Positions 1,656 through 58,750 of a stretch of DNA of 64,000 nt are shown one piece after another. Under the pieces are notes generated by a model. It searched no databases. It worked only from the letters and a program-made list of their open reading frames with translations, and was not told the DNA's origin. The translations under genes were made by a program, and so were the position numbers. Every line of letters starts with the position of its first letter. The first letter of the stretch is position 1. The DNA comes from a virus (Duplodnaviria > Heunggongvirae > Uroviricota > Caudoviricetes), in the IMG/VR virus record IMGVR_UViG_3300031993_004551, positions 1 through 64,000 of that record; one strand, written 5' to 3'.

Positions 1656-1753
1656 AGTTTCCTCGGTTGTTTCGTAATCGAAGTTTATATCTCCGTCGGA
1701 TTTTTGAAAATCGCGGTCATTTTTCGAAAACCGAGGTTGATTTTCGGAATTCG

Positions 1754-1765
1754 TTGCTATATTTA
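1754..1765 (+). promoter_or_regulatory. promoter motif TTGCTATATTTA, plus-oriented, 28 nt upstream of the ATG at 1791
   Basis: Variant of the recurrent TTTTTGCTATATTTG element. Preceded by TTTCGAAAA-type palindromic repeats (1700-1750). Confidence 0.45.
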
Positions 1766-2865: not shown

Positions 2866-3065
2866 GTTTTTTATAACATAGCGACGAGAAAACTCACCCA
2901 TCTTTAGTGGGTGAGATGAAAGCCGCTTGACGATTTTCGGAAAATTTGCTACATATATAAACTGATATACGAAGGCAACTCGCACTTGTCGTCGTGGGAA
3001 AGTTTAAGATGTACTTAGGTACATTGTGTCCTACCGGAAGTGCGAGTTCCGGTAGGATTTTTCGT

Positions 3066-4337
3066 ATGATAGTCAAGAAAGGCATAGAAATCAAGCTATA
3101 TCCGAACAAGGCGCAGAAGGTATTCTTTGCGAAGACCTTCGGTTGCTGTCGTTTCGTGTATAACCAGTGCCTTAAAATCAAGTCATATATCTACGAAGAG
3201 ACCAAGATGTCCTTCCAGCCGAAATTGAAGTCGTTTAAGGAAGAATGGGAATGGCTCAAGGAAGCCGACTCGCAAGGACTGGCTAATGCCTATATGGATA
3301 TGAACCAAGCCTACCAGAACTTCTTTACTGGTAAATCCAATTATCCGAGGTACAAGTCCAAGAAGGACAAGCAGAGCTACCGGAATGCTATGTGCCACAA
3401 GGATATTAAGAAACTAATTGTTGGCAATTCTATTGTACTGCCGAAGGTTGGTGCGGTCAAGTGCCGTTTCGGCAAGACATTCGAACACGAAAACATCGTT
3501 AAAATTTACAATGTTACAATCAAGAAAAGCAAGAAAGGCGACTATTATTGCTCAATATGTTGTGATGTTGATGTGCCGGAAATGGAACATACTGGCGAAT
3601 GCGTAGGACTCGACCTCGGCATCAAGTCGTCCATCGTGATGTCCAACGGAGAAGTGATTAAGAATCCACATTTCGATAAGAAGTCGGAACGAAAGATTAG
3701 GCATTTGCAGAGGAAACTCGCAAAGGCGAAGAAAGGCGGCAGTCGATACGAGAAAGTCCGTATTCAACTGGCCGCAGCCTATGAAAAACTGGGTAACAGA
3801 AGGAAAAACTTCCTTCATCAAGTATCGCACAGATTAGTCCGTGACTACGATATCATCTGTATGGAGAACCTTAACATAAAGGGAATGCAGAAAAACCATT
3901 GTCTTGCTGGCGCGTTGGCCAATCAGGCACTCGGTACACTAACTAAGATGATAGAGTACAAAGCTCAATGGCATAACCGTACGGTCGTTAAGGTAGGACG
4001 GTTCTTCCCCAGTTCGCAACTATGCAACAACTGTGGGCATAGATACCATACATTGAAACTTAGCGAACGCGAGTGGATATGTCCAGACTGTGGTAGCGTA
4101 ATAGATAGGGACTGGAATGCCGCCAAGAACATACTTGATGAAGGTCTTAGAATACTAGATAATGAAGGTACCCCGCGAACCGGGGAAGCCGTGGTCTTGC
4201 GACCGCTATGCCTTGCGGAGAACCCAACTGTGGATGAACGTCCTTGTGACCTAAAAAGCAGTGGTGCTATGATGCGGGAAATTCAACTGGTTGCATCGGT
4301 GGTTAACGAAACCCACCGGTCTTTAGCCGGTGGGTAG
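3066..4337 (+). CDS. tnpB: TnpB (IS605 OrfB-family RNA-guided nuclease)
   Basis: LYPNKAQ...GCCRFVYNQ N-terminus. RuvC-I GLDLGIKS. Zn finger CNNCGH...WICPDCGSVIDRDWNAAKNIL. Start moved to ATG 3066 (MIVKKGIEIKLYP). Confidence 0.85.
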   Translation: MIVKKGIEIKLYPNKAQKVFFAKTFGCCRFVYNQCLKIKSYIYEETKMSFQPKLKSFKEEWEWLKEADSQGLANAYMDMNQAYQNFFTGKSNYPRYKSKKDKQSYRNAMCHKDIKKLIVGNSIVLPKVGAVKCRFGKTFEHENIVKIYNVTIKKSKKGDYYCSICCDVDVPEMEHTGECVGLDLGIKSSIVMSNGEVIKNPHFDKKSERKIRHLQRKLAKAKKGGSRYEKVRIQLAAAYEKLGNRRKNFLHQVSHRLVRDYDIICMENLNIKGMQKNHCLAGALANQALGTLTKMIEYKAQWHNRTVVKVGRFFPSSQLCNNCGHRYHTLKLSEREWICPDCGSVIDRDWNAAKNILDEGLRILDNEGTPRTGEAVVLRPLCLAENPTVDERPCDLKSSGAMMREIQLVASVVNETHRSLAGG

Positions 4338-5530: not shown

Positions 5531-6530
5531 TGGATTTATTCTCCCTATTAGCAGCGCGGCACACCGCACAGTCGAATGTTGCGGTCACCTTGATTGGATG
5601 GAACATCAGGATTTTGTAAGTGTCCGGCAACCCTTCGATATTCCCGTGGGAATCGAACTTGCACTTCAAGGAGATGAGCAACGGGACATCATCGATGTTG
5701 TCGCCGCACCATATGATAGCCCGGCCATAGAAATGTATGTTTTCTACGCCAGGGTCGGACATCTGATACGGGACTACATGCTTGGTATAGTCATTGAGCG
5801 CAAATTCATGCACATCACCAATGTCGATTGAGCATTTCTTGTCACGAAGGGCTTCTTTCGGAATGGAATAAATTAAAGAATCTTTCGGAATGGAATAAAT
5901 TAAATCTTCGTAATACCTGTACGAATCGCTCACCGTTTCGTTTTGCTTCAACGGAAGAGCATACCACGGCTTCTTCCCGTTAGTGAACATTTTAGCACTA
6001 ATTATTCCCTGTTCAGGGGCGACTTCGGTAAGCCTTCCATTAACAATTTTAGGAGGAATCTTCCTGAAATATGCATACGGGGCTACCAACTTGGAAACAT
6101 TGTCCGCCGTCGCCTGTACCCAGTACGCAAGCTTAAATGCCCGAAGCGCCTGTTTAAGCGTCTTCAGTTCTTCAAGATATGGCTTACGAGCTTCAAGATA
6201 GAAGTTCTTAACCTGGGTTCTAGCCGGAAGCAAAGACTCCACCTTGTCCTTACCGAGCGAAGCTTCCCAGATAGTCTTCCCGGTCTTTTCACGGATAGCC
6301 CGTCGGTCGTCAAATGTAATTAAAGTATACACCGTATTGGAGCTTTTGTATGCCACCTTCAGGAGAGAGAGATTGGCGTTAACTTCGTCGATTCGCTTGC
6401 CGCACTTGTCTATGTAAGTAGGAATACTCCAATATGAATGCCCGTTGAACAAGAAACCAGAGTTGGTATGCTGTTCAGTCTTGATTTTCTGGATTATATT
6501 ATCCAGCTCTTTAAAGTTAGTAATTTTCAT
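5523..6530 (-). CDS. hypothetical protein (335 aa) with internal 9-aa tandem duplication
   Basis: Long ORF. DLIYSIPKDS-LIYSIPKEA is encoded by a perfect 24-nt repeat spaced 27 bp (5854-5904). Confidence 0.55.
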   Translation of the reverse strand: MKITNFKELDNIIQKIKTEQHTNSGFLFNGHSYWSIPTYIDKCGKRIDEVNANLSLLKVAYKSSNTVYTLITFDDRRAIREKTGKTIWEASLGKDKVESLLPARTQVKNFYLEARKPYLEELKTLKQALRAFKLAYWVQATADNVSKLVAPYAYFRKIPPKIVNGRLTEVAPEQGIISAKMFTNGKKPWYALPLKQNETVSDSYRYYEDLIYSIPKDSLIYSIPKEALRDKKCSIDIGDVHEFALNDYTKHVVPYQMSDPGVENIHFYGRAIIWCGDNIDDVPLLISLKCKFDSHGNIEGLPDTYKILMFHPIKVTATFDCAVCRAANRENKSNG

Positions 6531-6826
6531 TTTGCTTTCTCCATTAGTCGGCTAGCATTCTTCAGGATTTCGGTACCTACCGAGTCCATCCAATGTCGGA
6601 GTTCGATTTCATTCCGTTCAGTACCGCGCGGGATATTCTTGAATTTCACCGTAATATCATCGCACATGTGTATCCGGGAGGTTGCGTTATAGTAACAGTA
6701 TTCTATCTGTACGGAGGAGTCACGGCTGAATGCACCGAGCTGTATAGCGACTATTATCAACGCGGTAAGCCCGAAGCCCCACTTAAACAAAAACCCGATA
6801 ATCTTCAAAATAGTGTCTGTATTCAT
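6527..6826 (-). CDS. small membrane protein (99 aa)
   Basis: TM segment ILKIIGFLFKWGFGLTALIIVAI. Promoter motif lies 7 nt upstream. Confidence 0.5.
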   Translation of the reverse strand: MNTDTILKIIGFLFKWGFGLTALIIVAIQLGAFSRDSSVQIEYCYYNATSRIHMCDDITVKFKNIPRGTERNEIELRHWMDSVGTEILKNASRLMEKAK

Positions 6827-6833
6827 GATACTA

Positions 6834-6848
6834 CAAATATAGCAAAAA
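6834..6848 (-). promoter_or_regulatory. promoter motif (minus-oriented TTTTTGCTATATTTG) 7 nt upstream of the ATG at 6826
   Basis: Plus-strand text CAAATATAGCAAAAA. Confidence 0.5.
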
Positions 6849-9585: not shown

Positions 9586-9600
9586 CAAATATAGCAAAAA
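9586..9600 (-). promoter_or_regulatory. promoter motif (minus-oriented) 25 nt upstream of the ATG at 9561
   Basis: CAAATATAGCAAAAA on the plus strand. Confidence 0.5.
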
Positions 9601-9619
9601 GTTTCACTCGTGGATTGAC

Positions 9620-9632
9620 TTGCTATATTTGT
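9620..9632 (+). promoter_or_regulatory. promoter motif (plus-oriented TTGCTATATTTG) 4 nt upstream of the ATG at 9636
   Basis: Divergent partner of the 9586 motif. The very short spacer suggests a leaderless transcript. Confidence 0.4.
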
Positions 9633-10715: not shown

Positions 10716-11564
10716 CTATTTCTTTTTCGGCGTGAAAACCGGCAAATCCGCCTTTACGATTTTATGTTTCAACTCAAGGAGAATCCGCTGAGCTTCAAGT
10801 TTCATCCCCTGGCAGACCTCGATATAGGGGGAATCCCCGGCATTCTTTCCGGTGAACCCGAGGTTCTTGCCTTCCATGCTAGAATGGGTCATATCGACGG
10901 AATACTTCAAGGAAAGCTTGTTGTCCGCGGTAACGACCGGATTGAAATCAATCCAGAAAAAGAATTCATCATCGCCGACATCATGTATGTTGATGCCGAG
11001 GCTTTCATCGGTCTGCGCCTCGATAATACTGAACCTGACCTCGTTTGATTCGGAATCTTTCACGAATACCGGACGAAGGAACTTGTCAGCCAGATAATAC
11101 AGGAACACGAGCTGATACATCTTTTTACCCGGGGAACCGACCGTGTACTCAATCGGAACAGCGTGGGACTTAATTTTCTTGCCCATCTCGAATGGTTCGT
11201 CGTTAAGAATACTGTCCATAGAAATTTGGCGCAGTTCGGTCATAAATGGAGTAATCCAGTCATCCCCGTTTTCCCTTATCAGATTCCATAGCTCAAGCCG
11301 CCGGGTAACATTCCACATAAGCCGTTCGGTACATAGCAAGAGGAATGGATAGCGGGACAATTCAAGCTTCCTAATACCGGAATAGAAGAAGTCCGTAATA
11401 ATTTCCCGCATTTCGAGACCGGTCTTCCGGTAGTCCGGGTTATCCGGCAATTTCCTTTCATCCGGACGGTACAACAGGTTCATTTCGTATTCGGAAGCTT
11501 CCCAATGCGTCTCAAAGTCGCCGGAATCCCATGAACCCTTCTGTTGGGTATTAATATAAGGCAT
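10716..11564 (-). CDS. hypothetical protein (282 aa)
   Basis: Long ORF. No recognisable domain. Confidence 0.55.
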   Translation of the reverse strand: MPYINTQQKGSWDSGDFETHWEASEYEMNLLYRPDERKLPDNPDYRKTGLEMREIITDFFYSGIRKLELSRYPFLLLCTERLMWNVTRRLELWNLIRENGDDWITPFMTELRQISMDSILNDEPFEMGKKIKSHAVPIEYTVGSPGKKMYQLVFLYYLADKFLRPVFVKDSESNEVRFSIIEAQTDESLGINIHDVGDDEFFFWIDFNPVVTADNKLSLKYSVDMTHSSMEGKNLGFTGKNAGDSPYIEVCQGMKLEAQRILLELKHKIVKADLPVFTPKKK

Positions 11565-11581: not shown

Positions 11582-12106
11582 CTAGTTATTATAGTAAAAG
11601 CCGTAGTAAGTGTCCACTTCCTGCATTACAGGGCGGATTACGCTATCCAAGGAATTTGCCGAGTGCTTCAAAAGTTCGTGAAACTCTTCCGGAAAATCTT
11701 CGTATATGTGATACGCTTTCTCGGCACGGTTAAGAAAGTATGAAACGGACTTCCTTCCGATGAAGCCATACAGTACCTGGAATTTATTTTTCCGCAAGCA
11801 TGCCAACGCTTGCATAATCATCGACTTTTCATCACGGCACAATATTACACGAGTAGTGTCTGGAGTAACCGGCATCTTGTTTCGAAGGAAAGTCGAGAAG
11901 TAGCACTTGTGGATATGCTCGGCATAGGTAATTATGTATGCCAGGCCCGGAGTAAACCCTATTTGAATTGCATCAATCGGGATATCCGGCAGCATCGAAA
12001 AAACATTATCCAATTTAACCTTACCGTTCAGGGTAATCGCAAAATGGCAACCCTTTACAGTTTGAACATCATCACATTTAATAATACCGTTGATAAAATT
12101 CGCCAT
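11582..12106 (-). CDS. hypothetical protein (174 aa)
   Basis: ORF with the promoter motif 29 nt upstream. Confidence 0.5.
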   Translation of the reverse strand: MANFINGIIKCDDVQTVKGCHFAITLNGKVKLDNVFSMLPDIPIDAIQIGFTPGLAYIITYAEHIHKCYFSTFLRNKMPVTPDTTRVILCRDEKSMIMQALACLRKNKFQVLYGFIGRKSVSYFLNRAEKAYHIYEDFPEEFHELLKHSANSLDSVIRPVMQEVDTYYGFYYNN

Positions 12107-12130: not shown

Positions 12131-12161
12131 CAAATATAGCAATTTCCTTTTGCTATATTTG
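12131..12161. promoter_or_regulatory. divergent promoter pair: CAAATATAGCAA (12131-12142, for the minus gene) and TTGCTATATTTG (12150-12161, for the plus gene)
   Basis: Two inverted copies of the motif separated by 7 nt between divergent genes. Confidence 0.55.
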
Positions 12162-12212: not shown

Positions 12213-12635
12213 ATGCCTATGTTATCACCTGAAGAGCAATGGCAGCGAGCGCTAGCCGCGCAAATGCCGCAGGCACCTAAGCCTACGACATCCATACATG
12301 AGGAAGTTGCCGCAGACCGGCGCAAACGCAACCTGCTCGCCAACAAGAAGTACCGCCACACCGAAAAGGGGCGCGAACGGAACAAGGAACACTGCCACAA
12401 GTACTACGAGAAACACAAGGACGAGTTCATCAAGGCTGTCGCGCAGTACAAGGTAAACTTCGCACTGTTCTACGGAATCGAGTTCAGCTCGTGGGACTAC
12501 TGGCGCAGAAAGATTCTTGCCAACAAGTGCCAGACTACCGAAGTTCCCGAAATGTACGGGAAGATACTCGCCGACTGGCTCGCCAAGGGAAAGAAGGGCT
12601 ACGGGTTCACCTCCGCAGACTTCAAGAAGAAATGA
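12213..12635 (+). CDS. hypothetical basic protein (140 aa)
   Basis: Lys/Arg-rich. Terminator follows. Confidence 0.5.
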   Translation: MPMLSPEEQWQRALAAQMPQAPKPTTSIHEEVAADRRKRNLLANKKYRHTEKGRERNKEHCHKYYEKHKDEFIKAVAQYKVNFALFYGIEFSSWDYWRRKILANKCQTTEVPEMYGKILADWLAKGKKGYGFTSADFKKK

Positions 12636-13026: not shown

Positions 13027-13380
13027 CTATTTTCCTTTCTTGATGTAGTTGTAATAGCGCGGCGCCCGGTTGGTGGAATCCTTCTTGTACGATACATATT
13101 CCGAAAGGCAATCCGTGCTTAACGTGTCCAGCATTGTGTGTGTCCCTATACAGCTCGGCGGCACCACATTTTCGTTGAAATAGTCCATCGAGCCCCTGTA
13201 CATCGTTTCCATATCGGGTAACGCCAGCCATGAATATAGCAAGGCTACACCGGATATAGGAAGTAACACAAGAGCCATCTTCTTGTGGAAGGATAAAGCG
13301 CATGCACATCCGAATCCAGAGCAAATTATAGCCAATACCTTGCAAAATACATAGCAGTCGAAATCAGTTGCGAATATCAT
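13027..13380 (-). CDS. Cys-rich small membrane protein
   Basis: Start set to ATG 13380, directly (4 nt) downstream of the promoter motif at 13385-13400. Confidence 0.45.
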   Translation of the reverse strand: MIFATDFDCYVFCKVLAIICSGFGCACALSFHKKMALVLLPISGVALLYSWLALPDMETMYRGSMDYFNENVVPPSCIGTHTMLDTLSTDCLSEYVSYKKDSTNRAPRYYNYIKKGK

Positions 13381-13384: not shown

Positions 13385-13400
13385 CAAATATAGCAAAAAA
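13385..13400 (-). promoter_or_regulatory. promoter motif (minus-oriented) with ATG 4 nt downstream
   Basis: CAAATATAGCAAAAAA. Confidence 0.45.
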
Positions 13401-15092: not shown

Positions 15093-15117
15093 AGTTTATA
15101 CAGTAGAGGCACCAGTA

Positions 15118-15132
15118 TTTTGCTATATTTGG
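15118..15132 (+). promoter_or_regulatory. promoter motif (plus-oriented TTTTGCTATATTTGG) 28 nt upstream of the ATG at 15161
   Basis: Motif match. Confidence 0.5.
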
Positions 15133-15160: not shown

Positions 15161-16048
15161 ATGGAATACAAAATGGACAAGATTAACGCCTTGGAACTCC
15201 CGTACACCAAGGGCATATCCCTCGTGGATGACCACCTAGAGTACGGGGCCAGGGTAATAATACCCGAGAACAAGTGGACCATAATCCGGGTAGACGGCCA
15301 CAACTTCAAGCGCTTTGCGAAGCCCTTCAAGAAAATCAACCCGTTCCACCCGCTGGTTAACCTCGCGATGAAGACCGCGATGGAAGCGCTCATCAAGGAG
15401 TTCTCCCCGAAGGTCGCATATACGCAGAGCGACGAGATAACCCTCGTCATCGACCCTGGCCACCGGAAATACTCCGGAAGGACATGCAAGCTAGCCTCGC
15501 TGTCCGCGTCGATTGCCACGATGGCGTTCGACGACGCGATGAACCGCAACAACAAACTTGTTCCCGAGGAACTGCGGAAGGCATCGCCGGACGGCATCTA
15601 CCGGTGCGACGCCATCTTCGACGGAAGGGCGTACGCCGCCAACGAGAATGAGATAGCGGGTACCCTCCGGTGGCGCCAGAGGGACTGCATTCGAAACTCG
15701 ATTTCGAACCAGGCAAACCGCTACTTCTCCAACAAGCAGCTGCTCGGAAAGAACAATACCCAGCGGCTGGAGATGCTGAGGGAAATCGGGCATCCTTGGG
15801 AAGACCTGCCCTTCTGCGACAAGTACGGCATAATAGCCGTTCCGGTCCTGGAGGTGGTCGAGGTCGACATCGAGAAGCGCCGGGCGGAAGGCGCAAGCGA
15901 ACGCGAACTTGCCAACATCGCAGCGCACGATGGCCACACCCTGCGCTCCGTAGTAACCTACCCGTTGTACCCGCCGATGAAAGACATCAGCAACCTAATG
16001 GAAGTCCTGATTGAACACAAGGACCCTATCCTGAGAGGACAAAAATGA
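15161..16048 (+). CDS. Thg1-like protein (tRNA-His guanylyltransferase family, 3'-5' nucleotidyltransferase)
   Basis: [20 protein letters not shown] resembles Thg1 [33 protein letters not shown] resembles AYGQSDEYSFVF (catalytic acidic residues). [11 protein letters not shown] resembles SWRQADCHINN. Confidence 0.85.
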   Translation: [295 protein letters not shown]

Positions 16049-16506
16049 AAAAACTGTTTAAATTCATCTACACCTGCTATGAAATCTGGTGGCTTGCCAT
16101 AATCGCAAACACGGTCATCGGCATACTTGAAAAATGGATGCTGAAGAACCGCAAGAAACCAGCAAAGCCGGCCAACCCGCAGAAAGCCCTGTTCGAATCC
16201 AAAGAGGAACTTCTTCGTAAGGAAAGGGAAAAGCATGCTCAGACGAAGGCATTTTACGACAACTATCCCAAGATAGAACCGTTCGGCATCTCCGCGCAGG
16301 TAGCTACGCCGATTTCCACTGGCGAACGAGGAAAACAACTGATGCTCGAATCGTTCTCCCCGGAAGAACGCGAGCAGTTCATGGCTGCCGAGCCGACATC
16401 GAGCGCAAAGGAACTCACCAAGGAATGCATGAAGCAGTTCGACAAGCTGATGCGCGTGTTCGAGAAGAAAGAAGAAGACAAGATTCGCAGCGAGGAGGAT
16501 TTCTAA
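16045..16506 (+). CDS. hypothetical membrane-anchored protein (153 aa)
   Basis: N-terminal TM (IWWLAIIANTVIGIL). Overlaps neighbours by 4 and 1 nt. Confidence 0.5.
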   Translation: MKKLFKFIYTCYEIWWLAIIANTVIGILEKWMLKNRKKPAKPANPQKALFESKEELLRKEREKHAQTKAFYDNYPKIEPFGISAQVATPISTGERGKQLMLESFSPEEREQFMAAEPTSSAKELTKECMKQFDKLMRVFEKKEEDKIRSEEDF

Positions 16507-17258
16507 TGCCAAAGGCAATATCTTGCGGGTTCATCATCTTCGACCAGCACACCGGGGAAATACTCGGGTGCCACCCGACGGGACGCCCGGGAGGACCCGA
16601 GATGTCATTCGACATCCCCAAGGGCCACCTGGAGGAAGGAGAGGAACCGCTGGTCACCGCTCTCCGTGAACTTTACGAGGAAACCGGGCTTATCCTGCCG
16701 CAGGACTACCCGGTACACCAAATCGGCCTCCGCCCGTACCAAAAGCAGAAGTCCCTGTTTCTGTTCTCGACCGAAGTCGACAATCTTAAAGCAATGCTGC
16801 CGAACCTGAAATGCAACTCAATGTTCACCGACAGCTTCGGTAACCAGAAGCCAGAAGTCGACCGCTATACCGCAGTTGCCGACCCGAACTGGTTTTTCCA
16901 CAACATGCAGCCGCACATCAAGGCGGAAATCGAACGGGCAAAGTGCGAACCCGTGTGTCGCGTAGAGGCGACCGTAGACGATACCACTACCTATGTGAAG
17001 CTTCAGCTGACTGAAGAACTCAGGAACAAATCCCGCGATTCAATCGTGTACCTCAAGGACTCCAATGTGTATCCGAACGGGATTTCCTTCGATGTGAAGC
17101 TATCCACCGGCGATTATGCCAACATCGACATGGACGACCTGCAGAAAGCACTTGTCAACCCGGTCGTGGTAGATGTTACCGGCCTTACCGGGGCATTGCC
17201 CACATTCGACATCAACGAATGGCTCGACCAGGCACTCGCCCACGAGTCGTTGCACTAA
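16506..17258 (+). CDS. Nudix hydrolase
   Basis: Nudix box GHLEEGEEPLVTALRELYEETGL. Start at ATG 16506 (TAATG overlap with the upstream gene) rather than the track's 16425. Confidence 0.8.
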   Translation: MPKAISCGFIIFDQHTGEILGCHPTGRPGGPEMSFDIPKGHLEEGEEPLVTALRELYEETGLILPQDYPVHQIGLRPYQKQKSLFLFSTEVDNLKAMLPNLKCNSMFTDSFGNQKPEVDRYTAVADPNWFFHNMQPHIKAEIERAKCEPVCRVEATVDDTTTYVKLQLTEELRNKSRDSIVYLKDSNVYPNGISFDVKLSTGDYANIDMDDLQKALVNPVVVDVTGLTGALPTFDINEWLDQALAHESLH

Positions 17259-23698: not shown

Positions 23699-23977
23699 TT
23701 AAAGGGAACGGATAGTCACCCATTCGATACGGCCCGGGTAGACATCCTTGCGAAGGACAGCTGCGCTGTTTCCGTCTTCATCCAGGATTTCAGCACTGTC
23801 CAGCGATGTAACTTTCCTGTTCTTGAGAAGGGTCGTCGCTTCAGCCTTGCCGGTATCTACCGAGTTGGCGGTAAATTCGCCGGCACAGAACTTGTTGCCC
23901 ATCGTGGTGAACATGACCTTGAAGGTCTGCCTCTTGAAAGAGGAAGTGTCTTGCAGTGTAGTTTTCTTTTTTGACAT
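23699..23977 (-). CDS. hypothetical protein (92 aa)
   Basis: ORF. Promoter motif 19 nt upstream. Confidence 0.45.
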   Translation of the reverse strand: MSKKKTTLQDTSSFKRQTFKVMFTTMGNKFCAGEFTANSVDTGKAEATTLLKNRKVTSLDSAEILDEDGNSAAVLRKDVYPGRIEWVTIRSL

Positions 23978-23995: not shown

Positions 23996-24010
23996 ACAAA
24001 TATAGCAAAA
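23996..24010 (-). promoter_or_regulatory. promoter motif (minus-oriented)
   Basis: CAAATATAGCAAAAA. Confidence 0.5.
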
Positions 24011-24011
24011 A

Positions 24012-25134: not shown

Positions 25135-26277
25135 TTACTTTAAGTAACAATCGGCAAGCTGCAAAGCCTGCGAAATAGTGTCGTCCATGTCGTTATAGCG
25201 GTACATCCCGAGGCGCCCCGTGGGTACCACATTGAGTGGGAGCATTTCACGGTACTTCCTGTACAGCTCGGAGCTTTCCTTGCTCTTCACCGGGTAGTAT
25301 ACCTCTGTATCACGGGTCATTTCCTGCGGGTACTCGAAGCTCACTATGGACTTGGATTCCATCATGGCAAGCTGGTTCCACGGCTCGAAATGCTTGTGCT
25401 CGATGGTACGGGTGTAGTCCGGGTGGCGCTGGGTATAGTTCACTACGGCAACACCCTGATAGTTGTCGGTATCCTTTTCCTCGGTAACGAACTTCAGGCT
25501 GCGATACGGGAGGTCACCGAGCGAATAGTCAAAGTATTCGTCAAGCCGCCCGGAGTAAAATACCAAATTAGCCCGGTCATTCCATTCGTCCTTGCACTTG
25601 AGGTAGTCCTCTCCGGTGATGACCTGTGCAACCCCGTCGAACATATTGGAAATCCACTGGGTGTACCCGTTCTTCGGGATTCCCTGGTAGATATCGTTAA
25701 AGTAATTATTGTCGAAGCGGAACCTGAGCGGGATGCGGGTAATGATGTTCGAGTCAAGCTCTTTACAAGACTTCCCCCACTGCTTCTCGGTGTATCCCTT
25801 GATGAACAGCTCGTAGATTTCCTCGCCGACCATCGAAAGCGCCCTTTCTTCGAGGTTGGTATAGACCAGCTTCTGGAACTTCTTGGCGGATTCCTCGATG
25901 CGCTTCTTGGCGTCGGCTACGCTGAGCACATCGGGCCAGAGTTTTGTGAAGGTGTTCATGTTGAACGGGAGGTTGAACACTTCCGGATTCGTGTGACCCT
26001 CGCGGGTAACCATAGCAACCGGGCTGTTCACGAACGGCATCATCTCGTCAAAAAGGTTGGCGAAATCCCATACCTTCTTCTCGGATGTATGGAAAATATG
26101 CGCACCGTACTTGTGGACATTGATAGTGCCCATCCGTTCAGTAGCACAGTTTCCGCCCAGTTCTCCGCGGCGTTCAATGACAAGGACTTTCTTGCCCGCG
26201 TTGCCGAACTTATTGGCCAACACCGCGTTAAACAGGCCGGCGCCGACAAAGATAGCATCAAACTTTTGTTCTGACAT
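25135..26277 (-). CDS. glf: UDP-galactopyranose mutase
   Basis: FDAIFVGAGLFNAVLANKFGNAGKKVLVIERRGELGGNCATE...INVHKYGAHIFHT matches the Glf flavin-binding N-terminus nearly motif for motif. Start at ATG 26277 (MSEQKFD). Confidence 0.9.
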   Translation of the reverse strand: MSEQKFDAIFVGAGLFNAVLANKFGNAGKKVLVIERRGELGGNCATERMGTINVHKYGAHIFHTSEKKVWDFANLFDEMMPFVNSPVAMVTREGHTNPEVFNLPFNMNTFTKLWPDVLSVADAKKRIEESAKKFQKLVYTNLEERALSMVGEEIYELFIKGYTEKQWGKSCKELDSNIITRIPLRFRFDNNYFNDIYQGIPKNGYTQWISNMFDGVAQVITGEDYLKCKDEWNDRANLVFYSGRLDEYFDYSLGDLPYRSLKFVTEEKDTDNYQGVAVVNYTQRHPDYTRTIEHKHFEPWNQLAMMESKSIVSFEYPQEMTRDTEVYYPVKSKESSELYRKYREMLPLNVVPTGRLGMYRYNDMDDTISQALQLADCYLK

Positions 26278-28312
26278 TGTAGCTCCTCTTTGGAATGACG
26301 GCATCGTGCGCCTCTGTCTTTACTTCGACTACAGTGGACTCTTCGTTCACCGGGGCCTCTACCGGCTTCGGTTTTTCCTTGACCGGCTCAGTAAAGAACT
26401 TGATGAGCGTATCGCGGTCCATCTTGGTAAGGTCGAGGTCGACTTCACCCTGGTAATCCGCATTGACCGGATGGAAGCCAAATAGCTTGAGAACAGACAC
26501 GAGGCTAATCGTGCGGCCAATCTGCATAATGAGGGAGTCTACCATATTTACGGTATCGCCGTTCTTCATCGGGGCGCGGTTGTTACCGGTAGCCTTACCG
26601 ATGAGCATCACGAAGGAATGGTTAGCGATAGCAAGCGTAGTCCTCTTGGCGGCAATCCTGGAGTCAAGCTGAACGATAATTTCCTCGGGCTTCACCATGC
26701 ACTCCCCGTCTGCCAACGGGCAGGCATCCTTCTTGGCGAAGAACATACGGTAGCGCCCCTGCTTGGCCGAACCGCTGAACTGGTGGAGATTGAAGATGAC
26801 GCCACCATTAGCATAGCCACCGAAATAGATACATTCCGTTGCTTCCGGGTCAGCATTCGTCATGTCCCCGGAGTAGCGCAGATGGAACATCTTCTTCTTC
26901 GGGTCCTCGCCCGGGATATCCGACTTGAAGGTAGTATTCCAGGAAACAGTAGTGCCTTCCAAAGTGGACGCCGAGAGGTCAAAGTCATGCGTACCCCATT
27001 CGTTTCTCCAGTATACCCCAATTACATTGTGCTCGTAGCGGCGAAGCTTGGTACCCATCGGGTAGTCGCCGACGAAGTTTTTTTCGGAGGTCGGGAGCGC
27101 GACCGCGATATTATCGTCAACCTTGATGAACCCAGTCTTCTTCTTTTTGGTGATGAAGTTCGAGATAGACGCGATGATAAGACCCTGCACACTCTGGAGC
27201 CAGAGCATGGATTCCGGGGAACGCTTCGGAGCGTATCCCTTGCGGACAAAGAGTCTACCCGTACGGATAGTGTACACGCTATTCTGGAGAGGTCTCGGGG
27301 CAAGACGGTCGGCGACCGCCTGAAGGAGCCTGAGACGGCGGAACATCGGAGTCTTTTCGAGGGCTTCGGCAACGGCGTCAAGCTTGGCACGGTCACCCGG
27401 AACAAAAATGCAGTCGAGAACGCCCGGTTCATAAGGCTGTTTCAACTTCTTGGCAAGGTGGCTGATGCGGTTGATTGCCATATGGACGGAGTACTTTTCG
27501 ACATCGCCGTAGTCCACCCCGCGGAGCGCCATGAAAAGCTTCTTGAAGCGGAAGTAAACGGTAGCAAGGATTTTATACTCGGTCTCACCAAGGTTCTCGA
27601 AAATCTCGAGCAGTTCTTCATCGTTCTCGGTCGCCCGAATCTCCTGGCATGTCTTCTTGGTGTTCACCAGCATCGCGCTTCCGGTCGCCACATACACGAG
27701 GTAGCGAACGAATTCCACCGGGTCCGTGGGAGTAGTTGCCGTATCCTGATAAATCAGGCAGCGCGCTTCCCTGTTGCGGATTTCTGAAATGTCGCACCCG
27801 CCGTGGGCCTTGATATAACCATAAACGAGAAGCACCGTATCGGCACTGAGGGCAATCCCGGAAGCAAGCATCTTGATGCAGCGCTGCTTGAGTTCATCTG
27901 CAGTGACCGAAGGAATCGTGGTAAGCTTGCTGAAGTCGATTACATAGGTTTCCTGTTCGATTACCTTTTCAGTTTCACGGTTATTCGGCACATAGCCGTT
28001 CCCACAGGCAAAGTCCGTCCCGTAGGTGGACATATAGTGTACCATCTGGTCGAATGCAAGCTGGACTTCGGAGCGGCTTTCGATGTCGTTCCAAGCCTTG
28101 TAGAAGGTGCTGTTCGGGTCGGTAGCTGTATCGAGGAGCCAGTCGCGCACCAGTTCGGTACACGACTCGGGAGCCACCATGAATCCCCTCATGCAGGCGA
28201 GGCGGTTCACCTCGTTAAAGCTTACAAGTTCCCCGCATTCCCCGGGAACTACACAGTGGAACAACTTCAAAAGCTCCACCGGCATCACATATTTTTCAAT
28301 AGCTTCGGACAT
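26258..28312 (-). CDS. hypothetical protein (684 aa)
   Basis: Long ORF. Start at the internal ATG 28312 (MSEAIEK). 20-nt overlap with glf. Confidence 0.55.
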   Translation of the reverse strand: MSEAIEKYVMPVELLKLFHCVVPGECGELVSFNEVNRLACMRGFMVAPESCTELVRDWLLDTATDPNSTFYKAWNDIESRSEVQLAFDQMVHYMSTYGTDFACGNGYVPNNRETEKVIEQETYVIDFSKLTTIPSVTADELKQRCIKMLASGIALSADTVLLVYGYIKAHGGCDISEIRNREARCLIYQDTATTPTDPVEFVRYLVYVATGSAMLVNTKKTCQEIRATENDEELLEIFENLGETEYKILATVYFRFKKLFMALRGVDYGDVEKYSVHMAINRISHLAKKLKQPYEPGVLDCIFVPGDRAKLDAVAEALEKTPMFRRLRLLQAVADRLAPRPLQNSVYTIRTGRLFVRKGYAPKRSPESMLWLQSVQGLIIASISNFITKKKKTGFIKVDDNIAVALPTSEKNFVGDYPMGTKLRRYEHNVIGVYWRNEWGTHDFDLSASTLEGTTVSWNTTFKSDIPGEDPKKKMFHLRYSGDMTNADPEATECIYFGGYANGGVIFNLHQFSGSAKQGRYRMFFAKKDACPLADGECMVKPEEIIVQLDSRIAAKRTTLAIANHSFVMLIGKATGNNRAPMKNGDTVNMVDSLIMQIGRTISLVSVLKLFGFHPVNADYQGEVDLDLTKMDRDTLIKFFTEPVKEKPKPVEAPVNEESTVVEVKTEAHDAVIPKRSYNVRTKV

Positions 28313-28359: not shown

Positions 28360-28374
28360 TAAATATAGCAAAAA
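28360..28374 (-). promoter_or_regulatory. promoter motif variant (TAAATATAGCAAAAA, minus-oriented) 47 nt upstream of the ATG at 28312
   Basis: Motif match with TTTA in place of TTTG. Confidence 0.4.
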
Positions 28375-28384: not shown

Positions 28385-28897
28385 TTACGGCTTCAGCATA
28401 TTCCTGACAGTGGTAATAGCCTTGCCGAGAAGGTTCTGACCGCGCCAGTTAGCCTCGTCGTCAATGCCGTTGGCACCCATAGGCATCAGGATTCCCCAAA
28501 TTCCGTCTACCGGGGAAGCCTCGACGAAAGTCTTCCCGTCGAAGCGAGGGTCGAGCAACTTCTCCAGCAAATCCGGATTCTGCCGGTACTTCTCGAGATT
28601 GACCTGAATCATTATGTCGTACCGTACCTTGGCCCACTTTTCGTTATCAAACGGCTTCACCTGACGGCCAAGCGACTTGGCATCCATCGGGGTAGCCGCC
28701 TTGAGTATGGCGTCCGCCGTCCTGGTGTCGCCGAAGTAGTTCGCCTTTTCCCACATGAACGCCTGTTCCGTGCAGAAGAAAGTTTCCGTCTTCTTGGTTG
28801 TGCCGTCGATATGGCTGCTGTAGGCGAAGCTGCACCGCCTGAAGTTGGATGGCCATTCCTTGTAGAAGAATACATGCGTATCAGTGATATCCAGCAT
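28385..28897 (-). CDS. NADAR-domain protein (YbiA/DUF1768-like)
   Basis: FFYKEWPSNF...FCTEQAFMWEKA...WAKVRYDIM...GIWGIL matches the NADAR fold signature. Start at ATG 28897. Confidence 0.72.
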   Translation of the reverse strand: MLDITDTHVFFYKEWPSNFRRCSFAYSSHIDGTTKKTETFFCTEQAFMWEKANYFGDTRTADAILKAATPMDAKSLGRQVKPFDNEKWAKVRYDIMIQVNLEKYRQNPDLLEKLLDPRFDGKTFVEASPVDGIWGILMPMGANGIDDEANWRGQNLLGKAITTVRNMLKP

Positions 28898-28905
28898 GGC
28901 TACCC

Positions 28906-29529
28906 CTATGCGTCGTTGATGACGCGGCTGAGCCACCGTCCGAAACGGTTATCGTACATGTTAAGTTCCGGGAGATGCTTGGCGATAGCATCGATGCAAT
29001 CGCTGACGCACTCGTCGATACCCTTACGGCCATCCACATAGACCACCGGCGTATTCCCGAGGAACTTCTCGGTCTCCGCATACGCGGTACGCAAATTCTC
29101 GAGACGCCCCGGAGTTTCCTTGAGCTTGGGTTCGCGGTCATAGCAGGTCTCGAGCGGGGTCTCCATGAAGATGTACAGGTCGGGCTGCTTGAAGATGTTG
29201 AAGTCCTGATACAGCTCCTCGCAGAACGAATAGATGCTCGGGGAGAATGCCTTGGCATAGGCAAGCCCGCTCCATAGGTACCTGTCGAGCAGAACCATAT
29301 TCCCGTTGTAGAACTTCTGCTGACGGAGACGGCCTTCGAGGAAAAACACCTCGCGCTTGGCGTCCTTGCCCTTGAACTCGTCCGAGTTGAGCCGGTCAGC
29401 CTCCTCGGTGGAAAACAGGGGTTCCTTGCTCCACTTGAATTCCGGGTAGCGCTTGGCGATAATCTTGGAAATCGTGGTCTTGCCGGAGTTGTCCACGCCT
29501 TCAAACACGATAAGCGGATTATGCTTCAT
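28906..29529 (-). CDS. tmk: thymidylate kinase-like P-loop kinase
   Basis: P-loop IVFEGVDNSGKTT. LDRYLWSGLAYAKA resembles the dTMP kinase DRY..S..AYQ motif. Start at ATG 29529 (MKHNPL), not 29652. Confidence 0.68.
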   Translation of the reverse strand: MKHNPLIVFEGVDNSGKTTISKIIAKRYPEFKWSKEPLFSTEEADRLNSDEFKGKDAKREVFFLEGRLRQQKFYNGNMVLLDRYLWSGLAYAKAFSPSIYSFCEELYQDFNIFKQPDLYIFMETPLETCYDREPKLKETPGRLENLRTAYAETEKFLGNTPVVYVDGRKGIDECVSDCIDAIAKHLPELNMYDNRFGRWLSRVINDA

Positions 29530-30382
29530 TCTTCGGGCCCTCCTTGGGCTTCTGTAAACGGGTCTCCACGAGGGCAGTGGTCGCGTCAGCGTGAACAATA
29601 TTATATCCCGGGTATTTCCCTGACGCATTAAAGTTCTTGGTGTACGGGTCAATCTGCATCTGGATGGCCGGGGCGGTATACTGGATAAGCCCGGTACGGT
29701 GGCAAATCTTGGTGTTTGCGTGGTGGTAATGGCCGCAGCAGACGGTAGTAACCTTAGCGCTCTTCATAAGCACCCGGACGAACTCAAAGTTTACCGGAAG
29801 CGTGAACTGTTCCTGGTTCATGAAGCGGTGGAACGGACGGACAAGCGGCATATGAGTGAACGCAGTCATCGTATGTTCGCCGACATCTGGCATTGCCAAC
29901 AGGCGGAACAGCCCTTCGACCGGATAGTCCTTATGCGCCGTATCGAGCAGGCATAACCTTGTATTGGAACTCTTGCCCTTGGCAAATGCAATAGCCTGTC
30001 CCGGGACATTAAACGAGCCGTCGAACCGAAATTCGAAAAATGCATTCTTATTGTAAAGGTATACGAACTTTTTACGGAACGCCGTAAATGCTTCCTCAAG
30101 AGCAGCACGGTTATCGTGGTTACCCGGGGTTACCAAGATTGCCGGCTGATACTCTTCAGGCAAGTCCCCCCCGAACGCCCGTTGCAATCCCTCGAGAAGA
30201 TTAGTGTAATCTTCGACCGTAGCGTCATCCACGAGGTCGCCGGTAAGGACGATAAGGTTGTAATGGCTGTACTGCCTTCCGGCATCAGCCAGTACGGCGT
30301 CCAGGTTTCCCTGGACATCGAACATACCCTTCTGGTCCCCCTTGAGGTGTATATCCGAAAGTTGAAGTATTAATGATTCCAT
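29519..30382 (-). CDS. calcineurin-like metallophosphoesterase (CpdA/Icc-type cyclic nucleotide phosphodiesterase-like)
   Basis: Motif series SDIHL, GDLVDD, GNHDN, GHYHH. Confidence 0.7.
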   Translation of the reverse strand: MESLILQLSDIHLKGDQKGMFDVQGNLDAVLADAGRQYSHYNLIVLTGDLVDDATVEDYTNLLEGLQRAFGGDLPEEYQPAILVTPGNHDNRAALEEAFTAFRKKFVYLYNKNAFFEFRFDGSFNVPGQAIAFAKGKSSNTRLCLLDTAHKDYPVEGLFRLLAMPDVGEHTMTAFTHMPLVRPFHRFMNQEQFTLPVNFEFVRVLMKSAKVTTVCCGHYHHANTKICHRTGLIQYTAPAIQMQIDPYTKNFNASGKYPGYNIVHADATTALVETRLQKPKEGPKNEA

Positions 30383-30869: not shown

Positions 30870-31713
30870 CGGCTTTAATTTCCTTCGTTATCAGGCGCGA
30901 ATAAAGGTTCGCGTATGCTTTAAACTCCTCGGCATCGATGAACGGCCCAAGATTCACTACCGGGTTGTTATGCTCGTTCACCACCTCGAATACGCACTGC
31001 GGATGTTCTTTAGTAGCGCGGTAGTAGGTATTCTTCTTGAGCAGGAGAATCTTCCTCGTCGTATATGGCGTATTGGCATAGTTGATTGCCATGCCATAAT
31101 TGCCCTCAAATGCTATCCCGTAACCGTTGCCAAGCTTAAGTCTAGGGAACAACTTGCGGTCGGACGCATCCTTGCCGCATATTTTCTTAACCCATACAAG
31201 AAAACGGTAATCCTCGTCGTGGTAGGCATTCCATATCCGGGAAACCTCCTGCACACTCTCCACGCCCAGTTCGGAGTCTTCCGTTATCATATAACGGACG
31301 CCTTCCGGAATATCAACAATGCGAAGCGTATTGTTGTCGTTCAGCTTGTCGAGCATCTTGTAGTCGCCACCGAGAGCATCCACATAGGAAACAAGGGTGT
31401 CGCGCAGTTCGCTACCGGTAGTGTCAAAAGAAAGGTTCACCGATGCGGTATCGGGCACATCTCCATGTAGAGGATTACCGGAATCGTCATAGCAGGACTT
31501 TGTAGCGTTAAAGTGGACAAGCCAAGCCTTGATGAGCTTGCTCGAACCCCCGAAAACAGCCAAGGCTTTCCCGTTGGAGTCCGCAGGTAAAAAATAAGGG
31601 TCGGGGGATACGGTATCCCCTACCCTTTCGGCCAAATACATTGCCGCCCCGAGAGATATCTGGGGTACGCCGATACTTGTCGAGACGAGCACCTTTGGCA
31701 TTATACGCCCCAC
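30856..31713 (-). CDS. hypothetical protein (285 aa) inside the NAD island
   Basis: ORF overlapping both neighbours (14 and 13 nt). No recognisable motif. Confidence 0.5.
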   Translation of the reverse strand: MGRIMPKVLVSTSIGVPQISLGAAMYLAERVGDTVSPDPYFLPADSNGKALAVFGGSSKLIKAWLVHFNATKSCYDDSGNPLHGDVPDTASVNLSFDTTGSELRDTLVSYVDALGGDYKMLDKLNDNNTLRIVDIPEGVRYMITEDSELGVESVQEVSRIWNAYHDEDYRFLVWVKKICGKDASDRKLFPRLKLGNGYGIAFEGNYGMAINYANTPYTTRKILLLKKNTYYRATKEHPQCVFEVVNEHNNPVVNLGPFIDAEEFKAYANLYSRLITKEIKADEIF

Positions 31714-32486
31714 TTCGGAATACGGACGATATCGCGCTTGAACTGCGATGCCTTTACACGGGCCTGGATTTTACCCAAAACGCCAATATTAAGTGTTTCC
31801 GGATTATTGACATAAGTCCGGATGTCATCGTAAGTAAAGCCGAGGTTGTCCTCGTCCGTCTTACCACTGAGGCCGTCGGACGGAGCCTTGTAGACAAGAT
31901 GTTCCGGGAGGCCAAGCGCCATTCCCAGCTTGCAGACATCCTGCTTGAACAGGGTACCAATCGGAGCCAAATCGCCAGCAAGGTCGCCCCACAAGGTACA
32001 GTATCCGACGAGAGCTTCTGAGAAGTTTCCCGTGCAGAGAACGCGGCCTTCACCGAGCGCCTGTGCAACCATGTACAGCTTTTCCATACGGATACGCGGG
32101 GCGAGATTGATTTCTGCCTGACGGTCATACATGTGCTTCGTACCGAGACCCTTGATGAGTTCAATCTGCTTCAGCCCAATCTGGTAATCGTCGTGGATGT
32201 TGATTGTAAGCGTACGGGTAATCCCGGCAGCTACTGCACAATTGTGAGCATCTTCAAGGTCTGGCTGGACTCCGTTCGGGAGGAACACGCCGATTACCTT
32301 GTCCGCGCCTAAAGTCCTCGTGGCAAGCTTGCCGACAACCAAGGAGTCGGTTCCGCCGGACATACCGAGAACGAGAAATTCGCCGTGATTTTCTTGCATC
32401 GTGAGCTTAATCCACTGTCCGATGCTATCGGCCATTTCGATGAACTTGGCGGTTTCTTCTTCAGTCATTTTATCTGGCGTGAGCAT
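31701..32486 (-). CDS. nadE: NH3-dependent NAD+ synthetase
   Basis: PP-loop LVLGMSGGTDSLV. Downstream LCTGNFSEALVGYCTLWGD is characteristic of NadE. Start at ATG 32486 (TAATG coupling to pncA). Alternative ATG at 32467. Confidence 0.85.
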   Translation of the reverse strand: MLTPDKMTEEETAKFIEMADSIGQWIKLTMQENHGEFLVLGMSGGTDSLVVGKLATRTLGADKVIGVFLPNGVQPDLEDAHNCAVAAGITRTLTINIHDDYQIGLKQIELIKGLGTKHMYDRQAEINLAPRIRMEKLYMVAQALGEGRVLCTGNFSEALVGYCTLWGDLAGDLAPIGTLFKQDVCKLGMALGLPEHLVYKAPSDGLSGKTDEDNLGFTYDDIRTYVNNPETLNIGVLGKIQARVKASQFKRDIVRIPKWGV

Positions 32487-34781: not shown

Positions 34782-34813
34782 CAAATATAGCAAAAATCCC
34801 CGTTTCCGGGGAT
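34782..34813 (-). promoter_or_regulatory. overlapping terminator hairpin (34796-34813) and promoter motif (34782-34796). ATG of nadM lies 4 nt downstream
   Basis: ATCCCCG-TTT-CGGGGAT hairpin. Its 3' T-run is the TTTTT of TTTTTGCTATATTTG. Confidence 0.55.
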
Positions 34814-34823
34814 TCTTTTAAGT

Positions 34824-38730: not shown

Positions 38731-38745
38731 CAAATATAGCAATTT
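38731..38745 (-). promoter_or_regulatory. promoter motif (minus-oriented) 31 nt upstream of the rnl ATG
   Basis: CAAATATAGCAATTT. Confidence 0.5.
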
Positions 38746-40483: not shown

Positions 40484-40499
40484 ATTATAGGGATTCGAG

Positions 40500-43682: not shown

Positions 43683-43716
43683 CAAATATAGCAAAAAGAC
43701 CGCCGAAGCGGTCTTC
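43683..43716 (-). promoter_or_regulatory. promoter motif (43683-43697) overlapping a terminator hairpin (43696-43715). 16 nt to the ATG at 43666
   Basis: AAGACCGC-CGAA-GCGGTCTT hairpin directly abuts CAAATATAGCAAAAA. Confidence 0.5.
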
Positions 43717-44901: not shown

Positions 44902-44955
44902 AGATAAGCAAAATGTCCACAGAACGCTTAATTTGCCCGTCAGCATTCCGTGGAC

Positions 44956-46436: not shown

Positions 46437-46451
46437 CAAATATAGCAAAAA
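46437..46451 (-). promoter_or_regulatory. promoter motif (minus-oriented) with ATG 4 nt downstream
   Basis: CAAATATAGCAAAAA. Confidence 0.5.
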
Positions 46452-51388: not shown

Positions 51389-51551
51389 CGGTTAATTTTC
51401 TCCTACCTGTCGTACAAAACAACCGGTCTGTATCAACAAGCTACAAATATATCCACACGGTGTCAACAGCGAACAAATAAGATGTCAACAAAAAAACGGA
51501 AAGGTGCCCGGTCATCCCGGGCACCTTGAACACTATGAGCATTAAGAATAT

Positions 51552-52267: not shown

Positions 52268-52307
52268 CAAATATAGCAAAAAAGAAAAGTCCCGGTGGAA
52301 CCGGGAC
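52268..52307 (-). promoter_or_regulatory. promoter motif (52268-52283) plus terminator hairpin (52289-52307). 27 nt to the infC ATG
   Basis: GTCCCGG-TGGAA-CCGGGAC hairpin followed (minus strand) by a T-rich run merging into TTTTTTGCTATATTTGG. Confidence 0.5.
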
Positions 52308-52325
52308 CCGAATGAGCCGTTTCGA

Positions 52326-56739: not shown

Positions 56740-56755
56740 CAAATATAGCAAAAAA
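56740..56755 (-). promoter_or_regulatory. promoter motif (minus-oriented)
   Basis: CAAATATAGCAAAAAA. Confidence 0.5.
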
Positions 56756-58299: not shown

Positions 58300-58750
58300 T
58301 GTAAATGGACGCATTTTATACAAAAAATATCAAAAGTATAGCCAAAATAGCTAAATAGATGCTAGATTTGAATATAGCAAGCACCAATAATCAATATTTG
58401 TGTGTTGCATTTAGCAACATATATGTATTCATAAGGAATGCTCGCATCAACGGCCCATAGATGTATAATCTAAAAGTGAATCTTGAACTCTTTGCTCTGG
58501 ATAACACTTTTCGTTGATTAGACTCAGTGAAGCATAATAATATGCTGAACTATGTTAAAAAGACCATGACACCCTGAGATATTTGGCCAAGTCTCTCGCC
58601 CTGTCGAACGATATTAAACAACCCAGATGGGTAAGGGTAGTGTATCGTTCATAAAAATCTTTTTAACCTTGTCGATGGTCACCCACAGGGATTAATCCCT
58701 GCATTACCTATTAAATTAGGTATAAAAGGATAGCGAAATGGTTTATGTGT
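58300..58750 (+). ncRNA. putative IscB omega-RNA (upstream of and overlapping the iscB 5' end)
   Basis: IscB omega-RNAs are established to lie directly 5' of iscB. Hairpins GTTGCATTTAGCAAC and CAGGGATTAATCCCTG are seen. Exact boundaries unknown. Confidence 0.4.

Follow-up and report, generated by a model that had tools for sequence, protein, structure and literature searches.

A conserved motif as the probable core of an extended -10 promoter class in an uncultured T4-like phage of ruminant guts

The stretch of phage DNA analysed here, 64,000 nucleotides (nt) of a member of the Caudoviricetes (positions 1 to 64,000 of IMG/VR record IMGVR_UViG_3300031993_004551; hereafter the window), contains 16 copies of a short motif with the core TTGCTATATTT(G/A). 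This motif is probably the core of the principal promoter class of the non-structural (early/middle-type) genes, probably belongs to the extended -10 (TGn/-10) kind, and would be read by a host RNA polymerase of the sigma-70 type. The consensus is new, no account of the motif as a regulatory element having been found in the literature, and its architecture is of a known kind. The window is part of an uncultured, T4-like phage of ruminant guts with a genome of about 200 kb, of which about 84 kb was seen. The sequence of the motif, its positions, orientation and conservation and its context in relatives were computed, and from these we infer the polymerase and its sigma factor, the start site and the timing of expression.

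The motif, its predicted start sites and its forms in related phages

The exact 15-mer TTTTTGCTATATTTG occurs nine times in the window, always on the minus strand (6834, 9586, 13385, 23997, 34782, 43683, 46437, 52268 and 56740; site coordinates refer to the low end of TGCTATATTTR), and not once in 100 dinucleotide shuffles of the 64 kb; when up to two mismatches are allowed there are 12 matches against 0.14 expected. The core is present in 16 copies where none is expected, the sites other than those of the exact 15-mer being 1755 (+), 9621 (+), 12131 (-), 12151 (+), 15121 (+), 28360 (-) and 38731 (-). With at most one mismatch the 11-mer TGCTATATTTG yields 19 matches against 0.99 expected, and the three extra ones (26247, 40539 and 58360) deviate inside the box; the match at 26247, which lies in coding sequence, is probably due to chance. 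An earlier reading of the same DNA, referred to below as the original prediction, had listed 16 copies of a promoter element oriented toward adjacent gene starts, several of them as divergent pairs. All of its copies are real and lie 0-4 nt from where they had been placed. Every one of the 16 aims at an open reading frame (ORF) of at least 64 amino acids (aa) that begins with ATG, 0-47 nt downstream of the predicted transcription start, and there are two divergent pairs, one spanning 12131-12161 (12131-12141 on the minus and 12151-12161 on the plus strand) and the other formed by 9586 (-) and 9621 (+). By our own ORF model about 5% of the window is non-coding, and the 16 sites without exception fall into gene gaps or come within a few nt of a start codon. 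Confinement to gaps, orientation toward genes and the divergent pairs uphold the view of the motif as a promoter element, which equal frequency in coding DNA would have contradicted.

In the position table of the 16 sites, TTGCTATATTT is invariant and the last core base is G in 14 copies and A in two, which gives TATATTTG at 14 sites and TATATTTA at the others. An invariant 5' extension TTTTTGC, as previously described, holds in part: TTGC is found at all 16 sites, and the three bases before it are T in just 11-12. Downstream there is a bias toward A at +12 (13 of 16), T at +14 (12 of 16) and A at +15 (12 of 16). From -20 to -60 the information content across the 16 sites is zero, with neither a -35 nor a -33 element, and a scan for sigma-70 -35/-10 promoters did not pick up these sites.

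Placed in the standard promoter frame, the motif consists of T-G at -15/-14, C at -13, TATATT at -12 to -7 and T-G at -6/-5, behind a tract of T. In the frame of the Bacteroidota, TAnnTTTG occupies -12 to -5 relative to mapped start sites (PMC9723704), and both frames therefore predict the same start, 5 nt after the motif. The base at this position is A, and the preceding base T, in 12 of 16 copies each. At four sites (9621+, 13385-, 34782- and 46437-) TATATTTG is followed, after four bases, by ATG, which thus stands 7 nt after TATATT; at a single fixed offset, chance would supply an ATG with a probability of 1/64 per site. Because the ATG coincides exactly with the predicted start at these four genes, their mRNAs are predicted to be leaderless. 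The evidence for a start 5 nt after the motif and for leaderless mRNAs is indirect but consistent. The leaders at the remaining sites would be 3-47 nt long, and eight of these 12 contain a Shine-Dalgarno-like site, in one case AAGG. Strong hairpins (-14.8 to -19.7 kcal/mol) lie directly upstream of the copies at 13385, 34782, 43683 and 52268, with the T run of the motif as their T tail, and weaker hairpins adjoin three more copies.

Scanning viral contigs with the 15-mer led to a 170 kb IMG/VR contig that is syntenic with window positions 42-58 kb at 42-68% protein identity and carries the same motif at orthologous gaps. Further relatives (loci L248-L264) were fetched via the initiation factor IF3 homologue encoded in the window, a phage family of more than 60 clusters (46-95% identity), some of them on contigs of ~100-470 kb. 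In L248-L252 (IF3 identity 62%, G+C 53-58%) the motif reads TGCTATATTT(G/A). L254 and L264 (49-51%, G+C 53-57%) have TTTTTC-TATATT followed by TA, TG, TC or AG, and also TTTTC-TATAAT; L255 (47%, G+C 40%) has TTTTAC-TATATTTA; and in L261-L263 (38%, G+C 49%) taTTGACA is followed after 17 bp by TATATTTA. Among relatives at 47-67% protein identity and 40-58% G+C, (T)n-N-C-TATAWT is kept at orthologous gaps whose flanks are unalignable. Conserved across the clade are the T tract, T(-15), C(-13) and TATAWT; G(-14), T(-6) and G(-5) are not, and the box occurs as TATATTTA, TATATTC, TATATTAG or TATAAT. The base at -14 is fixed within each lineage, as G in the window phage, T in L254/L264 and A in L255. 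The distance to the start codon recurs as well: at the gene orthologous to 45242-46432, in diverged flanking DNA, ATG follows after four bases in L248 and L251 and after five in L028, and spacings of four or five bases are found elsewhere in L254 (two), L255 (one), L261 (two), L264 (one) and L013 (three, all of five bases), the last being another contig with three motif copies whose kinship to the window phage is unsettled. The abutment of hairpin and motif is also seen in L028, L248 and L251.

The box further occurs together with a -35 element. In L261-L263 there are five copies of taTTGACA-N17-TATATTTA in 20.7 kb, against ~0.015 expected by our own estimate; in some the box is preceded by TGC or TTC, and in two ATG follows after four bases. 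The phage's own genome has taTTGACA-N17-TATATTTG a few kb to the left of the window (locus L243, 18823-, and L244). Within the window, a promoter of this second type (51438..51489, -) lies upstream of the exonuclease gene and consists of GTTGACA, a 17-bp spacer that contains TATATTTG (51444-51451), and TAGCTT; it is kept as TTGACA-N17-TAATTT in the relatives L250 and L251. The pairing of the same -10 box with TTGACA at 17 bp points to a standard primary sigma factor of the sigma-70 type. GTTGAYA itself forms two clusters of three repeats in gene gaps, 11-31 bp apart, at 51431-51489 (-) and 58188-58236 (+), and some of the clustered repeats fit TTGAYA-N17-TAnnnT promoters. As a genome-wide motif GTTGAYA was rejected, since its 22 occurrences across the window (14.5 expected) are no enrichment and it is clustered locally only.

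The promoter reading and its rivals

An extended -10 promoter accounts for most of these features. The 16 window sites all have TG at -15/-14, one spacer base and a TAnnnT hexamer, there is no -35 information, and transcription is predicted to start 7 nt beyond the hexamer; promoters of the TGn/-10 class dispense with a -35 box, do not depend on sigma region 4 and are immune to the T4 protein AsiA (PMC2988021). TG and hexamer would be read by the RNA polymerase of a host whose primary sigma is of the canonical sigma-70 type, through sigma regions 2 and 3 alone. Most promoters of the window lineage would have dropped the -35 box and come to rely on TG plus hexamer, and the T tract would double, at no fewer than four sites, as the U tail of the intrinsic terminator of the preceding gene, resulting in compact terminator-promoter cassettes. 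The motif departs from the class in that the window phage additionally keeps C(-13), the T tract upstream and T(-6)G(-5) constant, and in that TG is not met in L254/L264 (TTC) and L255 (TAC) while C(-13) stays, the reverse of the usual TGn rule. Similar composites are known as promoter-early stem-loop (PeSL) cassettes of T4-type phages, short conserved units of terminator and promoter between small non-structural genes that are rare in structural modules (PMC4122927, PMC2839356); the published PeSL promoters are of the -35/N17/-10 form, whereas the -35 box is missing in the window lineage and present in the relative L261, and a clear hairpin accompanies only 4-7 of the 16 window copies. Several observations weigh against the extended -10 reading. 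With twelve bases invariant in 14 of 16 copies, the motif is more tightly constrained than most promoters of host sigma factors, and a base at -14 that differs between lineages would also be in keeping with a phage-encoded factor that co-evolves. In the lineages with T or A at -14, which have neither TG nor a -35 box, a holoenzyme without help may need more than hexamer and T tract. The rest of the genome could encode a phage sigma or a protein that binds sigma, and genomes of Bacteroidota have an excess of the exact 15-mer, at promoter-like positions.

This last point bears on the proposal that the motif is a promoter of the Bacteroidota primary sigma (sigma-ABfr type) with TATATTTG as its -7 box TAnnTTTG, which would make the host a member of that phylum, as the original prediction had it. 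The box matches TAnnTTTG literally, at the same predicted distance from the start site and at the inferred positions -12 to -5 (PMC9723704). About 41 of the 80 listed genome matches to the exact 15-mer are in Bacteroidota; among the matches listed, an ATG-started ORF follows within 150 nt at 33 of 40 in Bacteroidota as against 19 of 40 elsewhere, so that the 15-mer is frequent before genes of this phylum. The exonuclease has weak (27-30%) matches to phages of Bacteroidales, and upstream of its gene TA and TTTG are fixed among relatives, the two middle bases being variable. We nevertheless regard this reading as improbable. Ribosomes of Bacteroidia are reported to be blind to Shine-Dalgarno sequences (PMC9976891, PMC7797042, PMC13000453), and Shine-Dalgarno cores precede 27 of 50 genes in the window (54%; null 12%), 20 of 26 in L251 (77%), 10 of 21 in L248 (48%) and 10 of 17 in L261 (59%; nulls for the three, 12-16%), compared with 2 of 49 (4%) in Parabacteroides phage PM21P1, 8 of 45 (18%, null 13%) in crAss001, both of them phages of Bacteroidales, and 10 of 109 (9%) in loci from Bacteroidales genomes. 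The A-rich signal at -11 to -14 that is typical of Bacteroidia is seen in PM21P1 and not in the window genes. A -33 TTTG, 19-21 bp upstream, is missing at the 16 sites; this element is also weak in some Bacteroidota (PMC7366714) and hence not decisive alone. The middle bases of the box are not degenerate in the window, where 39 TAnnTTTG occur, of which 16 are TATATTTG and the other 23, mostly in coding sequence, are at chance level (~31 expected). In relatives the final G and the TT are replaced, and the same -10 box stands 17 bp from a perfect TTGACA there and in the phage's own genome, whereas Bacteroidota promoters are reported to be without classical -10/-35 boxes (PMC7366714). A preceding TG is no general feature of TAnnTTTG in Bacteroidota either (9.8% vs 7.1%). 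The host call made from the box was thus not sustained by Shine-Dalgarno usage, the single form of the box, the loss of TTTG in relatives, the TTGACA-N17 partner and the missing -33 element. An exact match to the -7 consensus of Bacteroidota did not identify the host, a caution that host prediction from one promoter-like motif should be cross-checked with ribosome-binding-site usage and related genomes.

A different proposal is that the motif is read only with a factor encoded by the phage (a phage sigma, a gp55-like sigma that recognises -10 only, or an activator that appropriates sigma), as a middle class switched on by an early protein. Near-perfect invariance over 12-15 bp without a -35 box resembles the logic of the T4 late promoter (TATAAATA, read by gp55), which is likewise a short invariant -10 box rich in A and T. 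Each lineage has its own, fixed base at -14, the TTC and TAC lineages have neither TG nor -35, the separate -35/-10 class could drive the earliest genes, and many window proteins have no recognisable function. On the other side, searches of Pfam and PHROGs revealed no sigma, RNA polymerase, MotA or AsiA domain in some 60 window proteins, and since no other promoter-like element found in the non-structural region is nearly as common as the motif, at least some of the genes behind it have to be among the first expressed. As a -10 hexamer for sigma-70 the box is a good one; it pairs with TTGACA at canonical spacing in relatives, and the TGn/-10 form of the window lineage is a self-sufficient class (PMC2988021). 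The resemblance to a T4 MotA box, raised earlier in favour of a specificity factor, does not survive comparison with T4 middle promoters (MotA/AsiA), for all that the backbone of the window phage is T4-like (Portal_T4, Gp23, T4-type terminase): the MotA box, (a/t)(a/t)(a/t)TGCTTtA, has its centre at -30 and is separated from the -10 box by 12+/-1 bp (PMC2988021), whereas here TGC at -15 to -13 directly adjoins the -10 box, the next bases are TAT instead of TT, and there is no signal at -30. Unlike a T4 late promoter, the motif does not occur in 7.3 kb of structural genes (L243 1-7313, with portal, Gp23 and others) and from the region upstream of the terminase gene; its absence from portal, capsid and terminase genes indicates that it is not a late promoter. 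We consider dependence on a phage factor unlikely, if conceivable. It seems highly improbable that the repeat mainly serves another purpose, be it recombination or shuffling, packaging, or the binding of a repressor or a replication protein. Gene shuffling in T4-type phages has been attributed to composite terminator-promoter repeats (PMC2839356, PMC4122927), and gene content does differ beside some conserved copies, an extra 272-aa gene preceding IF3 in L028, L248 and L251; but the strict orientation to downstream genes, the fixed four to five bases before start codons in several lineages, the -10-hexamer sequence with its canonical -35 partner in relatives, and the fact that the motif is neither palindromic nor clustered all speak for a promoter, to whose function a role in shuffling would be an addition and not a replacement.

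The sites, the genes they serve and the phage

The motif heads units for nicotinamide adenine dinucleotide (NAD) salvage, RNA repair, IF3 and many small genes of no known function. In the first divergent pair, the left half (12131..12145, -, core AAATTGCTATATTTG) has its predicted start at 12126, before the gene 11582-12106, and the right half (12147..12161, +, core CTTTTGCTATATTTG) at 12166, before 12213-12635. The second pair joins an exact 15-mer on the left (9586..9600, -, predicted start 9581) to the core TGACTTGCTATATTTG on the right (9617..9631, +), where the ATG at 9636 is the predicted start of a leaderless mRNA. The core TCGTTGCTATATTTA (1751..1765, +, predicted start 1770) precedes a small gene, 1791-1985, that is divergent from the terminase gene, and ATTTTGCTATATTTG (15117..15131, +, predicted start 15136) precedes a gene for a Thg1-like enzyme (15161-16048). 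All further copies are on the minus strand. At the exact 15-mer 6834..6848 the predicted start, 6829, leaves a leader of 3 nt before the ATG of the ORF 6527-6826; that at 13385..13399 is fused to an upstream terminator hairpin of -19.7 kcal/mol, with the ATG of the ORF 13027-13380, at 13380, as predicted start and no leader; and that at 23997..24011 (predicted start 23992) serves the ORF 23699-23977. The copy at 28360..28374, TTTTTGCTATATTTA, is one of those with a final A and has its predicted start at 28355, before a 684-aa ORF ending at 26258. At 34782..34796 the T run of the exact 15-mer is the tail of a terminator hairpin (34792-34817) and the ATG at 34777 of a gene for a nicotinamide mononucleotide (NMN) adenylyltransferase-Nudix fusion is the predicted start, again leaderless. 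The core AAATTGCTATATTTG recurs at 38731..38745 (predicted start 38726), before an RNA ligase gene (37473-38699). Exact 15-mers are found, finally, at 43683..43697 (predicted start 43678), after a terminator hairpin of -14.8 kcal/mol and before an RlaP-like gene, 42431-43666; at 46437..46451, where the ATG at 46432 is the predicted start of the leaderless mRNA whose spacing is kept in L248, L251 and L028; at 52268..52282 (predicted start 52263), after a terminator hairpin at 52287-52309 and before the phage IF3 gene, 51552-52241; and at 56740..56754 (predicted start 56735), before an ORF ending at 55927.

Variants of the box occur too. Two are probable promoters on the minus strand: CTATAATTTG (40484..40493), 17 nt upstream of the ATG of the gene 39719-40455, and TTTTACTATAATAA (11588..11601), upstream of the gene 10716-11564 and with an extension as in the relative L255. 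A third, TTGCTATATTC (58371..58381, -), points toward the ClpP gene. It overlaps TGCTAGATTTG on the plus strand (58360-58370), the two forming an imperfect palindrome, TGCTAGATTTGAATATAGCA (58360-58381), and would make up a pair of face-to-face promoter-like boxes about 70 nt upstream of a HEARO RNA. The box TTGCTATATTC is also present before a phosphatase gene in L257, a very large phage-like contig (ENA, 347,525 bp) with a sheath-like protein of 1235 aa and copies of IscB and TnpB.

The HEARO RNA (58446-58686, +; Rfam RF02033, 97.7 bits) belongs, as guide RNA, to an IscB-type mobile element at 58142-60021, an island of low G+C (36% vs 50%), and lies directly upstream of an ORF with RRXRR and HNH domains (58738-60021, +), whose IscB-type product has thousands of homologues at 55-62% identity in rumen data. 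Four TnpB genes (IS605 OrfB / Cas12f-like TNB domain) are present in the 64 kb, at 2994-4337 (+), 43771-44946 (-), 47933-49165 (+) and 62142-63941 (-), and there are more in relatives, a clade heavily colonised by small elements with RNA-guided nucleases.

The proteins of the window recur in metagenomes of ruminant guts (cattle, buffalo and others), on ENA/JGI contigs 109 kb and 201,688 bp long (the latter ERZ27257204 k141_557452), which places the window in a large phage. Genes for a T4-type portal (Portal_T4) and a Gp23-type major capsid protein lie just left of the window, which itself begins with a T4-type large terminase; the capsid and terminase proteins share no more than 30% identity with those of any cultured phage, and the hosts of these isolates are diverse. 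A nucleotide search of 24 kb against cultured phages returned one trivial match of 61 bp, a search of viral contigs seeded with the helicase protein found nothing, and a tRNA scan found no tRNA genes. Most of the window is non-structural, including genes for a Dda-like helicase, an exonuclease, ClpP, PhoH and the IF3 homologue, besides the TnpB genes, two RNA ligases, RlaP, the Thg1-like enzyme and an NAD salvage set. Another short sequence, TATAAAC, precedes the terminase gene, and two large genes of unknown function that lack the main motif, by 8-35 nt; it occurs at 1683, 15094 and 19489 (-) in the window, at 16424 and 17102 in L243 and at 3841 and 18351 in L257. Compared with the T4 late sequence given above it is no more than a weak candidate for a late promoter, with 11 occurrences against about 8 by chance and only three to five of them well placed.

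The NAD genes encode a NADAR domain protein (28385-28936), NAD synthase (31701-32594), the NMN adenylyltransferase-Nudix fusion (33122-34777), nicotinate phosphoribosyltransferase (36074-37492) and a further Nudix protein (16425-17258), a set that we take to resemble the NAD+ reconstitution pathways with which phages counter NAD-depleting defence. The RNA repair genes (15161-16048, 37473-38699, 42431-43666, 52326-53669 and 29519-30382) comprise a Thg1-like guanylyltransferase, two RNA ligases of different families, an RlaP nucleotidyltransferase and a metallophosphatase, which suggests a defence against cleavage of tRNA or mRNA by the host. Genes for UDP-galactopyranose mutase and two glycosyltransferase-like proteins (25135-26304, 46805-47902 and 49149-49964), kept in relatives of this lytic-type phage, may serve the modification of DNA or of cell-surface sugars.

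The host and the use of the promoter model

The host is probably a ruminant-gut bacterium that uses Shine-Dalgarno sites and canonical sigma-70 promoters. Individual proteins were tried as guides and set aside. Capsid and terminase, at no more than 30% identity to isolates with varied hosts, are uninformative, and so is the helicase; the cellular homologues of IF3 are 33-40% identical, with one named match (Clostridia, 33%), and UDP-galactopyranose mutase (Glf) has one named match, in Treponema (50%), both too weak; the cluster look-up for the mutase gave no names. The named homologues of IscB are all labelled 'Fibrobacter sp.', on phage-like contig sequence of 347-473 kb, a weak hint from which no host call is made: the phage-like contig labelled Fibrobacter shares only mobile-element genes with the window. 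A protein identical to that of L257 is also encoded on a contig of 473,528 bp labelled as a Fibrobacter sp. metagenome-assembled genome, and the literature on promoters or phages of Fibrobacter yielded nothing useful.

The IF3 homologue (51552-52241, -) has 229 aa with IF3_N and IF3_C domains and is 33-40% identical to cellular IF3. It co-occurs with several genes predicted to be leaderless, and IF3 normally disfavours leaderless genes. A more far-reaching idea, which we put forward as speculation, is that the phage clade has moved most of its non-structural genes to promoters independent of -35, and could then disable sigma region 4 of the host polymerase, or its recognition of -35, so as to shut off host genes with the phage's own still expressed. 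It is equally doubtful, as the other half of this idea, that the lineages with TTTTTC-TATATT or TTTTAC-TATATT need a phage protein that reads T(-15) and C(-13), the base at -14 tracking that protein. If such a takeover did take place, the leaderless genes and the phage IF3 would represent a matching takeover at the level of translation.

Read as an extended -10 promoter, the motif provides a promoter model that can be put to use, with predicted starts and leaderless genes, in the large T4-like phages of a rumen clade that is widespread and uncultured. For this clade, which counts more than 60 distinct relatives bearing IF3, the model helps to define transcription units and to correct gene starts.

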